A stretch of DNA of 64,000 nucleotides from the NCBI GenBank assembly GCA_964016885.1, contig OZ024746.1, positions 10,416,001-10,480,000 on the forward strand, given 5' to 3'. The notes beneath the pieces were generated by a model that saw nothing but the letters and a program-made list of their open reading frames with translations, was not told where the DNA came from and made no database searches. The translations under genes were made by a program, and so were the position numbers. Origin of the DNA: Eledone cirrhosa. Lineage: Eukaryota. Of this stretch, positions 13,068 to 19,644 are shown one piece after another. Numbering within the stretch: position 1 is the stretch's first letter; each line of letters starts with the position of its first letter.

Positions 13068-14093
13068 TATGTATATATATATATGTATATATATATATGT
13101 ATATATATATATATGTATATATATATATATGTATATATATATATGTATATATATATATGTATATATATATATATATATGTATATATATATATATATATGT
13201 ATATATGTATATATATATATATATATATATGTATATATATATATATATATGTATATATATATATGTATATATATATATATATATATATATATATATGTAT
13301 ATATATGTATATATATATATGTATATATATATATGTATATATATATATGTATATATATATATATATATATATATATATATGTATATATATGTATATATAT
13401 ATATGTATATATATATATGTATATATATATATGTATATATATATATGTATATATATATATGTATATATATATATATGTATATATATATATGTATATATAT
13501 ATATGTATATATATATATGTATATATATATATGTATATATATATATGTATATATATATATATATATGTATATATGTATATGTATATATATATATGTATAT
13601 ATATATATGTATATATATATGTGTATATATATATATGTATATATATATGTATATATGTATATATATATATATATATGTATATATATATGTGTGTATGTAT
13701 ATATATGTATATATGTATATATATATATATATATATATGTATATATATATGTGTGTATGTATATATATATATATATGTATATATATATGTATATATATAT
13801 ATGTATATATGTATATATATATATATGTATATATATATGTGTGTATATATATATATATATATATGTATATATATATGTGTATATATATATATATATGTGT
13901 ATATATATATATATATATATATGTATATATATATATATATATGTGTATATATATATATATATATATATGTATATATATATATATATATGTATATATATAT
14001 ATATATATGTATATATATATATATATATATGTATATATATATATATATATGTATATATATATATACATGTATATATATATATATATATATATG
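13068..14093. repeat. (TA)n microsatellite with TG interruptions, ~1 kb
   Basis: Direct reading; the overlapping YIYI ORFs are artefacts. Confidence 0.97.
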
Positions 14094-14155
14094 TAAAATA
14101 TTAAAAAAATAATGAATAAAACAATGAAACAGTTCCTTATATTAAACAAAAAAAG

Positions 14156-14310
14156 TTCATTATTTAACGATCGTTTCTAGGATATATATGTGTTAGAATT
14201 GGTATGCATATTCAACAGATCTATGTACAAAATTATACAAAATTATACAAACTATCAAAATTAAATATACATACCAAACACATATATATGCCGTCTTCAG
14301 AAATAATGAA
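14156..14310 (-). ncRNA. Type-I hammerhead ribozyme with ~115-nt stem II
   Basis: Minus strand reads TTCATTATTT-CTGAAGA-[long hairpin]-GAAAC-GATC-GTT|AAATAATGAA. Perfect 10-bp stem I, palindromic stem III AACGATCGTT, predicted GUU cleavage between 14166 and 14165. Confidence 0.8.
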
Positions 14311-14321
14311 ATAATTTATCT

Positions 14322-17300
14322 ACATATATATATATGTATATATATGTATGTATATATATGTATATATATGTATGTATATATATGTATATATATGTATATA
14401 TATATATGTATATATATGTATATATATATATATGTATATATATGTATATATATGTATATATATATATGTATATATATGTATATATATATATGTATATATA
14501 TGTATGTATATATATGTATATATATGTATATATATGTATGTATATATATGTATGTATATATATGTATATATATGTATATATATGTATATATATATATATG
14601 TATATATATGTATATATATATGTATGTATATATATGTATATATATATGTATGTATATATATGTATATATATGTATATATATATATGTATATATATGTATG
14701 TATATATATGTATATATATGTATATATATATATGTATGTATATATATGTATATATATGTATATATATATATGTATGTATATATATGTATATATATGTATA
14801 TATATATATGTATGTATATATATGTATATATATATGTATATATATGTATATATATGTATATATATATATGTATATATATGTATATATATATATGTATGTA
14901 TAAATATGTATGTATATATATGTATGTATATATATATGTATATGTATGTATATATATATGTATATATATGTATGTATATATATGTATATATATATATGTA
15001 TGTATATATATGTATGTATATATATGTATATATATGTATATATATGTATGTATATATATGTATATATATGTATGTATATATATGTATATATATATATATG
15101 TATGTATATATATGTATGTATATATATGTATATATATGTATATATATGTATGTATATATATGTATGTATATGTATGTATATATATGTATATATATATATG
15201 TATGTATATATATGTATATATATATGTATATATATGTATATATATATATGTATATATATATATGTATATATATGTATATATATATATGTATATATATGTA
15301 TGTATATATACATATGTATGTATATATATGTATATATACATATGTATGTATATATATGTATGTATATGTATGTATATATATGTATATATACATATGTATG
15401 TATATATATGTATGTATATGTATGTATATATATATATGTATATATATGTATATATGTATATGTATATATGTATATATATATATGTATATATGTATATATA
15501 TATATATATATATGTATATATACATGTATATATATATGTATATATATATATGTATATATATATATATATATATATGTATATATACATGTATATATATATG
15601 TATGTATATATATGTATATATATATATATATATGTATATATATATATGTATATATATATGTATATATATATATATATGTATATGTATATATATGTATATA
15701 TATGTATATATATATGTGTATATATATATGTGTATATATATATGTGTATATATATATGTATATGTATATATATGTATATGTATATATATGTATATATATA
15801 TATATGTATATGTATATATATGTATATGTATATATATATATATGTATATGTATATATATGTATATGTATATATATATATGTATATGTATATATATATATG
15901 TATGTATATATATATGTATATGTATATATATATATGTATGTATATATATATGTATATGTATATATATGTATATGTATATATATGTATATGTATATATATG
16001 TATATGTATATATATGTATATGTATATATATGTATATGTATATGTATATATATATATATGTATATATATATATATATATGTATATGTATATATATATATA
16101 TATGTATATGTATATGTATATATATATGTATATATATATATATATGTATATGTATATGTATATGTATATGTATATATATATGTATATATATATATGTATA
16201 TGTATATGTATATATATATGTATATATATATGTATATGTATATATATATGTATATATATATATATATGTATATATGTATATGTATATATATGTATATATG
16301 TATATGTATATATATGTATATATATATGTATATATATATATGTATATATGTATATGTATATATATGTATATATGTATATGTATATGTATATATATGTATA
16401 TGTATATGTATATATATGTATATATATATGTATATATATATATGTATATATATATATGTTTATATGTATATATATATATGTATATATATATATGTTTATA
16501 TGTATATATATATATGTATATATATATGTTTATATGTATATATATATATGTATATATATGTTTATATGTATATATATATATGTATATATATATATGTATA
16601 TATATATATGTATATATATATGTATATATATATATGTATATATATATATGTATATATATATATGTATATATATATATGTATATATATATGTATATATATA
16701 TATGGATATATATATATGTATATATATATATGGATATATATATGTATATATATATATGTATATATATATATATATGTATATATATATATATATGTATATA
16801 TATATATATGTATATATATATATGTATATATATATATGTATATATATATATGTATATATATATATGTATATATATATATGTATATATATATATGTATATA
16901 TATATATGTATATATATATATGTATATATATATGTGTATATATATATGTATATATATATATATGTGTATATATATATGTATATATATATATATGTGTATA
17001 TATATATATGTGTATATATGTGTATATATATATATGTGTATATATATGTATATATATATATGTGTATATATATGTATATATATATATGTGTATATATATG
17101 TATATATATATATGTGTATATATATGTATATATATATATGTGTATATATATGTATATATATATATATGTGTATATATATGTATATATATATATATGTGTA
17201 TATATATGTATATATATATATATGTATATTTATATATATATATATGTGTGTATATATATATATATATATATATATATGTGTGTATATATATATATATATA

Positions 17301-19247
17301 TATATATATGTGTGTGTATGTATATTTATATATATATATATGTGTGTATATATATATATATATATGTGTGTGTGTGTATATATATATATATATATATATA
17401 TATATGTATATATATATATATATGTGTATATATATGTGTATATGTATATATATATATATATGTATATATATATATATATATATGTATATATATATATATA
17501 TGTATATATATATATATATGTATATATATATATATGTATATATATATATGTATATATATATATGTATATATATATATGTATATATATATATGTATATATA
17601 TATATGTATATATATATATGTATATATATATATGTATATATATATATGTATATATATATGTGTATATATATATGTATATATATATATATGTGTATATATA
17701 TATGTATATATATATATATGTGTATATATATATATGTGTATATATGTGTATATATATATATGTGTATATATATGTATATATATATATGTGTATATATATG
17801 TATATATATATATGTGTATATATATGTATATATATATATGTGTATATATATGTATATATATATATGTGTATATATATGTATATATATATATATGTGTATA
17901 TATATGTATATATATATATATGTGTATATATATGTATATATATATATATGTATATTTATATATATATATATGTGTGTATATATATATATATATATATATA
18001 TATGTGTGTATATATATATATATATATATATATATGTGTGTGTATGTATATTTATATATATATATATGTGTGTATATATATATATATATATGTGTGTGTG
18101 TGTATATATATATATATATATATATATATATGTATATATATATATATATGTGTATATATATGTGTATATGTATATATATATATATATGTATATATATATA
18201 TATATATATGTATATATATATATATATGTATATATATATATGTATATATATATATATGTATATATATATATATATATATGTGTATATATATGTATATATA
18301 TATATATATGTGTGTATATATATATATATATGTATATATATATGTGTATATATATATATGTATATATGTATATATGTATATGTATATATATATATATGTA
18401 TATATATATATGTATATATATATATGTATATATATATATATGTATATATATATATATGTATATATCATCATCATCATCACCGTTTTACGTCCGTTCTTCC
18501 ACGCTAGCATGGGTTAGATATATATATATATATGTATATATATATATATGTATATATATGTATATATGTATATATATATATATGTATATATATATATATG
18601 TATATATATATATATGTATATATATATATGTATATATATATGTATATATGTATATATGTATATATATATATATGTATATATATATATATATATATATATG
18701 TATATATGTATATATATATATATATGTATATATGTATATATGTATATGTATATGTATATATGTATATGTATATATGTATATGTATATATATATGTATATA
18801 TGTATATATATATATATATGTATATATATATGTATATATATATGTATGTATATATATGTATATATATATATATATATATATATATATACGTATATATATG
18901 TATATATATATATATATGTATATATACGTATATATATGTATATATATATATATATGTATATATATGTGTATATATATATGTATATATATGTGTATATATA
19001 TATATGTATATATATGTGTATATATATATATGTATATATATGTGTATATATATATATGTATATATATATGTGTATATATATATATGTATATATATGTATA
19101 TATATGTATATGTATATATATGTATATATATGTATATGTATATATATGTATATGTATATACATATATATACATATATATACATATACATATATATACATA
19201 TATATATGTATATGTATATGTATATATATGTATATACATATATATAT
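14322..19247. repeat. Giant (TA)n/(TATG)n microsatellite, ~4.9 kb, with a short RTE tail inserted
   Basis: Direct reading. Confidence 0.97.
18466..18518 (-). mobile_element. Extremely 5'-truncated (~53 bp) copy of the young RTE
   Basis: (CAT)n-CACCGTTTTACGTCCGTTCTTCCACGCTAGCATGGGTTAGA, identical to 6766-6812 apart from a longer (CAT)n tail. Confidence 0.9.
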
Positions 19248-19328
19248 GCTTCTCTGATGATCGTTGCTTTTCCATTAATATCCTCGTGATATTTAATGTT
19301 TTGCACCGTGAAACTGTACAGTTAGGGC
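19248..19328 (+). ncRNA. Type-I hammerhead ribozyme candidate with extended stem II
   Basis: GCTTCT-CTGATGA(19254-60)-TCGTTGC..CATTAATATC/GATATTTAATG..GCACCGT-GAAAC(19310-14)-TGTACA-GTT|AGGGC. Palindromic stem III AACTGTACAGTT; short, G:U-rich stem I. Confidence 0.62.
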
Positions 19329-19446
19329 CATTTGAATAGGTAAATATTTATATTATATTTTTTAATTTTGATTAATTTTAATTGTATATTAATTTTGATT
19401 TATTTTGAAAAATTGGTTGAATTTTACTTGTTCTGCTTATCTCGAT

Positions 19447-19644
19447 ATATGTATATATATGTATATATATATATATGTATATATATGTGTATATATATAT
19501 ATATATATGTATATATATATATATGTATATATATATATATATGTATATATATGTATATATATATGTATATATATATATGTGTATATATATATATATGTAT
19601 ATATATATATATGTATATATATATATATATGTATATATATATAT
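19447..19644. repeat. (TA)n microsatellite
   Basis: Direct reading. Confidence 0.95.

Follow-up and report, generated by a model that had tools for sequence, protein, structure and literature searches.

Two unrelated hammerhead motifs, likely from Penelope-like elements, in a (TA)nTG array of Eledone cirrhosa

Penelope-like elements (PLEs) of the Hydra clade target (TA)n, as recorded in 26 of the 27 Hydra-clade rows counted by eye in the supplementary table of Craig et al. 2021 (PMC8557442); what we say of published work refers to the sections and table rows of each source used here. These elements carry a type I hammerhead ribozyme mostly ~100-250 nt from the 3' end, with a short self-complementary helix III and an AT-rich tail. 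One of them, Hydra-1_Obim of Octopus bimaculoides, has its hammerhead at position 2403 of 2507 nt. Neptune and Naiad PLEs also target TA microsatellites, in which target duplications are invisible, and the Naiads are without canonical hammerheads (PMC8557442); the sections used of a killifish Neptune paper (PMC12602865) contain nothing on targets. Metazoan PLE hammerheads are of type I, with an extra base after position 9 and a palindromic 15.2-16.2 region, and are for the most part found singly, in truncated form, with some lying in nearby opposite-strand pairs; their activity in vitro is low (Cervera and de la Pena 2014, PMC4209133). A PLE enzyme has been shown to cut AT-rich DNA and to use uncleaved RNA (Frangieh et al. 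2024, PMC11167929). Octopus vulgaris is reported to have active Penelope families (PMC13282606), and for the giant squid 235 hammerhead matches to Rfam are given (PMC6962438). Non-LTR retrozymes likewise have one type I hammerhead per unit of 200-230 bp and are non-coding and low in GC; they form head-to-tail tandems, in which two hammerheads on the same strand release a circle, and solo monomers exist (Cervera and de la Pena 2020, PMC7229834; Li et al. 2026 preprint, bioRxiv 10.64898/2026.07.22.740005). Here we analyse 64,000 nt of AT-rich, repeat-laden, animal-type DNA with an octopod-like repeat landscape from Eledone cirrhosa (GCA_964016885.1, contig OZ024746.1, positions 10,416,001 to 10,480,000; hereafter the window), in which two short islands, A and B, each with a hammerhead motif, lie in a long TA-type microsatellite array. 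The islands likely represent two PLE-type hammerheads, with an ordinary cause and in a situation of a known type.

When both strands of the window were scanned with a motif descriptor, type I hammerheads turned up at exactly two places, one in each island (Table 1). The core of hammerhead A is formed by CUGAAGA (14300-14294), GAAA with an 8-nt palindrome (14177-14167) and the GUU site at 14166. Its stem I has 10 bp (14310-14301 with 14165-14156), its long stem II occupies the 116 nt between the core boxes, and helix III consists of 2 bp and a tetraloop. Hammerhead B has CUGAUGA (19254-19260), GAAA with a 10-nt palindrome (19310-19322) and GUU at 19323. Six of the seven positions of its stem I (19247-19253 with 19324-19330) are paired, with one mismatch and two G·U pairs; 49 nt separate its core boxes, stem II is imperfect with U·U at its base, and helix III has 3 bp and a tetraloop. 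Both motifs arrange three helices around the core and possess the CUGANGA and GAAA boxes, the A15.1-U16.1 pair and a base other than G at position 17, and both are predicted to be cleaved after GUU. They read in divergent directions, and 4,924 bp separate the islands.

Table 1. Features of the array and of the elements in and around it, in window coordinates.
Feature	Position	Strand	Basis or content
Apparently full-length RTE-type LINE	6766-10340	-	ORF 7057-10176, intact 1,040-aa frame
Left (TA)nTG array, G-polar	13068..14094	+	76 G, 1 C in 1,027 nt
Island A, member of a ~215-bp repeat family with hammerhead, very abundant	14095..14321	-	descriptor scan, read-contig depth
Hammerhead A	14310-14156	-	descriptor scan, folding
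Central (TA)nTG array, first part, G-polar	14322..18465	+	420 G, 6 C
Exact tandem duplication within array	16745..18241	+	period 726 bp, 771 identical letters
RTE-type LINE 3' stub, 52 bp, interrupts central array	18466..18517	-	100% over 47 nt to full-length element end
Central array, second part	18518..19245	+	64 G, 8 C
Island B, hammerhead plus T-rich 121-nt tail folding as a hairpin	19246..19444	+	scan, folding
Hammerhead B	19247-19330	+	descriptor scan, folding, published-table layout comparison
Right (TA)nTG array, G-polar	19445..19644	+	15 G, 0 C
5'-truncated copy of the same RTE-type LINE, bounds array on right	19645..20240	-	95-96% to full-length element

Both hammerhead motifs are real. 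Block-wise dinucleotide shuffling produced one match in 300 shuffled windows and no window with two, and neither the 20,000 shuffles of island A nor the 20,000 of island B yielded any. The shuffle tests used a stricter form of the descriptor, which was composed after the motifs had already been seen, so these figures are somewhat flattering. The folding of island A has a z-score of -5.1 against 200 shuffles. Rfam gave no match at gathering level anywhere in the window, and its hammerhead models gave none on either island up to E = 10; the Rfam E-value matches on the array, among the 150 of 286 rows listed, were low-complexity miRNA hairpins and were dismissed as noise. The silence of Rfam, together with minimum-energy folds that differ from the active folds in context, is what a chance origin of the motifs within AT-rich hairpins would lead one to expect. 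Such an origin is nevertheless scarcely credible, given the shuffling results, the recurrence in B of a published clade-specific layout and the variation across family A (the repeat family of island A), which respects the hammerhead fold.

In the sequence context of the islands, the active fold is predicted to lie 4.7 kcal/mol (A) and 5.9 kcal/mol (B) above the minimum-energy fold, and in minimal constructs 1.3 and 7.1 kcal/mol above it. At these costs in context, a lone copy of B would likely cut a pre-mRNA only weakly; no host gene was identified. In the minimum-energy fold of A, the 3' arm of stem I pairs with the tail and the core is hidden as well. In neither motif is stem II closed by the G10.1-C11.1 pair; the bases that face each other there are C and A in motif A, and U and U in motif B. 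In this they differ from the metazoan PLE hammerheads of PMC4209133, which have a clean pair directly before GAAA. The juxtapositions of both A and B do occur among the PLE hammerheads of PMC8557442, U·U in 14 of the 26 Hydra-clade hammerhead rows and C/A in one plant PLE row, and no variant of the C/A juxtaposition in A reached 10% in the four sequencing runs on which family A was followed. Compared with the Hydra clade, both islands have a longer stem II and no attached ORF, and the hammerhead of Hydra-1_Obim differs in sequence from both. By its layout, including the U·U base of stem II, B is likely of the Hydra clade.

The two islands are unrelated in sequence, having no more than AT-rich noise in common. 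In each, the hammerhead is near the 3' end, as in PLEs, helix III is palindromic (8 nt in A, 10 nt in B) and a T-rich tail follows the cleavage site (71 nt in A, 121 nt in B). The best local alignment score between A and B, 36, falls in a T-rich stretch and was reached by 11 of 1,000 shuffles, and the best score against the reverse strand by 964 of 1,000. A mixed helix III between the two is predicted at -0.2 kcal/mol, compared with -10.0 and -13.4 kcal/mol for self-pairing of A and B. The published opposite-strand pairs lie 100-700 bp apart (PMC4209133), unlike A and B, which are 4.9 kb apart and of different families; a single head-to-head PLE insertion was ruled out because A and B are unrelated and distant from each other. 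The part of island A shared by its family spans ~14093-14310 and begins at the 5' arm of stem I. Both islands start within ~10 nt of this arm (window positions 14310 and 19247), perhaps because reverse transcription tends to stop there or because the element has a fixed end.

Collectively, these results suggest, with a probability of roughly 0.8, that A and B, which are unrelated, each likely represent the 5'-truncated 3' end of a different PLE family, that they entered a TA microsatellite already in place by separate insertions, and that the array itself likely grew by DNA slippage and unequal exchange. From established PLE biology, the GIY-YIG endonuclease of a PLE would nick AT-rich or (TA)n DNA, and its reverse transcriptase would copy uncleaved element RNA from near the 3' end. 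Synthesis would halt early, at about the stem I 5' arm, and would have done so twice, in two families. The product would be a stub of 200-230 bp with a hammerhead and a T-rich tail, its target duplication concealed within TA. The use of uncleaved RNA by the PLE enzyme fits stubs that keep the whole hammerhead. Each stub would probably cleave weakly or need a second copy of its own kind, and A and B would be inert toward each other. The divergent orientation is one of the four arrangements possible for two insertions.

Several observations weigh against this reading. Pfam searches of 101 of the 110 window frames of at least 68 aa found no PLE reverse transcriptase or GIY-YIG domain and gave RTE-type hits only. 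Eight short motifs from the islands and from the upstream extension of A gave two single matches in the PLE sequences of the Craig et al. supplement, both in unrelated sequence, so it is by layout that the islands are assigned to PLEs. The stem II of A is far longer than any in the published table. The sole C-rich patch of the array (19161-19237; 4 G and 6 C in 19156-19245) lies directly 5' of island B. The three 3' flanks of A displayed from other organisms are differing, unique, non-TA sequences, which indicates that family A is not confined to TA; both copies in the window, A and B, sit in TA.

Read data place island A in a dispersed and very abundant family of roughly 10^4 copies. Fifteen studies contributed the 19 runs, of 24 listed, in which sequence words of A were present, and in four of these runs at least half of the words occurred; the runs richest in them may stem from the source sample. 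No RNA run was listed among the carriers, a result without bearing on expression, and neither the five runs with a share below 0.2 nor those outside the four used for contig placement were taken as indicating habitat or range. Contigs assembled from reads were placed on A at 80% likeness in four runs, with 65 loose ends not displayed. In run X1, 1,510 contigs were placed, with a summed depth of up to 1.0 million. The depth at the 5' junction of this particular copy is ~44, giving a rough ratio of 7,600-23,000; since summed depth is no copy number, this ratio is taken solely as an order of 10^4. The depth in X1 falls from 243,095 (14301-14309) to 13,387 (14310-14318) and 44 (14319-14327). For A only, these data reveal a dispersed multi-copy family with 5' truncation, as in PLEs. 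The family variants fit the hammerhead fold: of the depth in X1, 36% has A instead of U at the cleavage position and 25% has G·U in place of an A-U pair of stem I, and none of the ten listed substitutions affects another core position. In run X4, one of 31 contigs has an inverted copy head to head at the 5' end of A, which could be a library fold-back. Pattern scans for relatives of A gave no match in viral contigs, and a gapped pattern for B matched two viral loci, whose flanks fail stem I and which were judged by eye to be chance; in metagenomes neither pattern had a match. In the literature searched, with subscription journals and repeat databases outside its coverage, no description of family A or B was found. 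The unusually long stem II of this abundant family could help repeat annotators to classify a family otherwise labelled 'unknown' or as a SINE.

The initial annotation had proposed a paired ribozyme-microsatellite system, a single unit made up of both hammerheads and the array between them, by which giant TA arrays would be carried along or built via an RNA intermediate. Such a system would have been a new way of making giant microsatellites, but the results lend it no support, and we regard it as highly improbable. The divergent layout and the 4.9-kb spacing are real, although the TA array between the islands is not continuous, being interrupted by a stub of an RTE-type LINE. The array was also described as self-complementary TA. 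About 79% of it is indeed self-complementary as DNA, and three of three 600-nt pieces of + strand array RNA are predicted to fold almost fully (96-98% paired through G·U; 71-77% on the - strand), as a one-unit origin might favour. It is not pure TA, however, and consists of (TA)nTG with G replacing A on the + strand (575 G vs 15 C over four segments). Two opposite elements that each carried array with them should flip this polarity, yet it runs unchanged across A (42 G to 1 C on the left, 51 to 1 on the right) and shows no flip in mid-array; on polarity, the short C-rich patch beside B is the sole point in favour of one unit. The unrelated sequences and the lack of a mixed helix III also speak against a pair, and since A and B are on opposite strands, no RNA circle could be released from one transcript. 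The same features disfavour a retrozyme, which the initial annotation had also considered: the islands are single, unrelated and on opposite strands, whereas non-LTR retrozymes have their hammerheads on the same strand, in at least two units arranged head to tail, and the scan of the window found no tandem copy of either. That the cassettes build giant arrays through RNA is disfavoured by duplications at the DNA level and by the pieces of an RTE-type LINE, which has no hammerhead and shows the same TA association. The two other suggestions of the initial annotation, namely PLEs that target TA repeats and, as the simpler alternative, two independent insertions into a pre-existing array, are the ones that the present results support, the latter through the unrelated sequences of A and B and the unbroken polarity across A.

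The internal pattern of the array suggests how it grew. In the central array, a share of 0.47-0.63 of the 4-grams of G spacing are repeated, compared with 0.05-0.12 in two nulls, random placement and shuffled order, neither of which reached the observed repetition in 1,000 trials; in the other two segments it was reached by at most 1 of 1,000. The first part of the central array is composed of domains with differing unit lengths and repeated spacing patterns, and rare non-G variants recur as local clusters of 2-5. The 726-bp tandem duplication may reflect a recent unequal exchange, or else an assembly artefact. Spacing repeats, duplication and variant clusters are the pattern that slippage and unequal exchange would produce, not the one that editing an RNA template at random would leave, and these DNA-level processes are the likely source of the array's growth. 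A one-strand excess of G, with the G residues all at purine positions preceded by U, could also be left by ADAR hyper-editing of (UA)n RNA followed by reverse transcription into the genome, and repeat editing is widespread in coleoids (PMC9068888). Such an origin is extremely improbable here: the G residues are patterned in repeated domains that none of 1,000 random placements matched in any of the four segments tested, the non-G variants are clustered as slippage predicts, and elsewhere in the window the arrays have C polarity or a mixed one. A transcription-coupled A>G bias was considered as a cause of the polarity and is unsupported because of those same C-polar or mixed arrays. In the left array, the alternation of purine and pyrimidine is unbroken.

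A different possibility concerns A, and perhaps B: rather than a truncated end, it could stand on its own as a non-autonomous element ('ribozyme SINE' or solo retrozyme monomer) whose ~215-bp unit is copied in trans by a PLE enzyme. Most copies of A seem to start at the stem I 5' arm, the depth in X1 falling 18-fold at 14310, and X1 displays no well-supported common extension beyond it. B starts at the same structural place, derivatives of retrozyme monomers have been described (bioRxiv 10.64898/2026.07.22.740005), and the 10-nt stem I 5' arm of A (14310-14301) recurs near the 3' end of the island, at 14115-14106 on the - strand, as in a copy of slightly more than one unit. On the other side, a tandem copy is absent from the window and from the contig joints displayed, the X4 and X6 contigs have an extension upstream of A in common, and contigs break where flanks differ or the copy in the window departs, so the drop in depth may be partly technical. 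We consider a self-standing element unlikely. An extended form of the idea, in which family A, as a 'hammerhead SINE' standing by itself, has ~10^4 copies and a 5' end fixed at stem I, its 116-nt stem II is an ADAR substrate, and A-to-I editing beside the core tunes the self-cleavage of host transcripts, is more doubtful still. If true, family A would be a ribozyme gated by editing, in a lineage noted for how heavily it edits its RNA.

The editing idea arises from run X6, which is of unrecorded kind, has the species label and study of X1 and comes from a different sample. X6 nearly alone holds three of the ten listed substitutions, at 14185 (19%), 14199 (34%) and 14261 (41%); the same sites reach at most 0.01% in X1 and 0 in X4. 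On the ribozyme strand, each is an A>G change within stem II, preceded by U or A. Contigs less than 90% alike to A are also more frequent in X6 (95 of 358) than in X1 (67 of 1,510). The three differences look like ADAR editing of family transcripts, in line with the widespread RNA editing of coleoid repeats (PMC9068888). They could also come from a few divergent expressed copies or from another individual, as contigs show neither strand nor expression level. Were they editing, family A would offer a cheap test of the effect of ADAR on hammerhead cleavage.

The array has also collected elements of another kind. Besides A and B, it has the 52-bp 3' stub and, at its edge, the truncated copy of an RTE-type LINE (Table 1), which brings the insertions in or beside it to four, of which two lack a ribozyme. 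The apparently full-length LINE of this type encodes an endonuclease, a reverse transcriptase and a PHD-like finger in its frame, and has an ATAC/TATG microsatellite on either flank. TA-type microsatellite adjoins all three close copies of this LINE, and many older fragments of it are found elsewhere in the window. Two satellites are also present, one with a 43-bp unit in 88 copies (24147-27893) and one with a 23/46-bp unit in 183 copies (35076-39244). A search for homologues of the segment at 62479-62696 on the + strand came back empty; preceded by a pyrimidine tract and AG and followed by GT, this segment is a possible coding exon.

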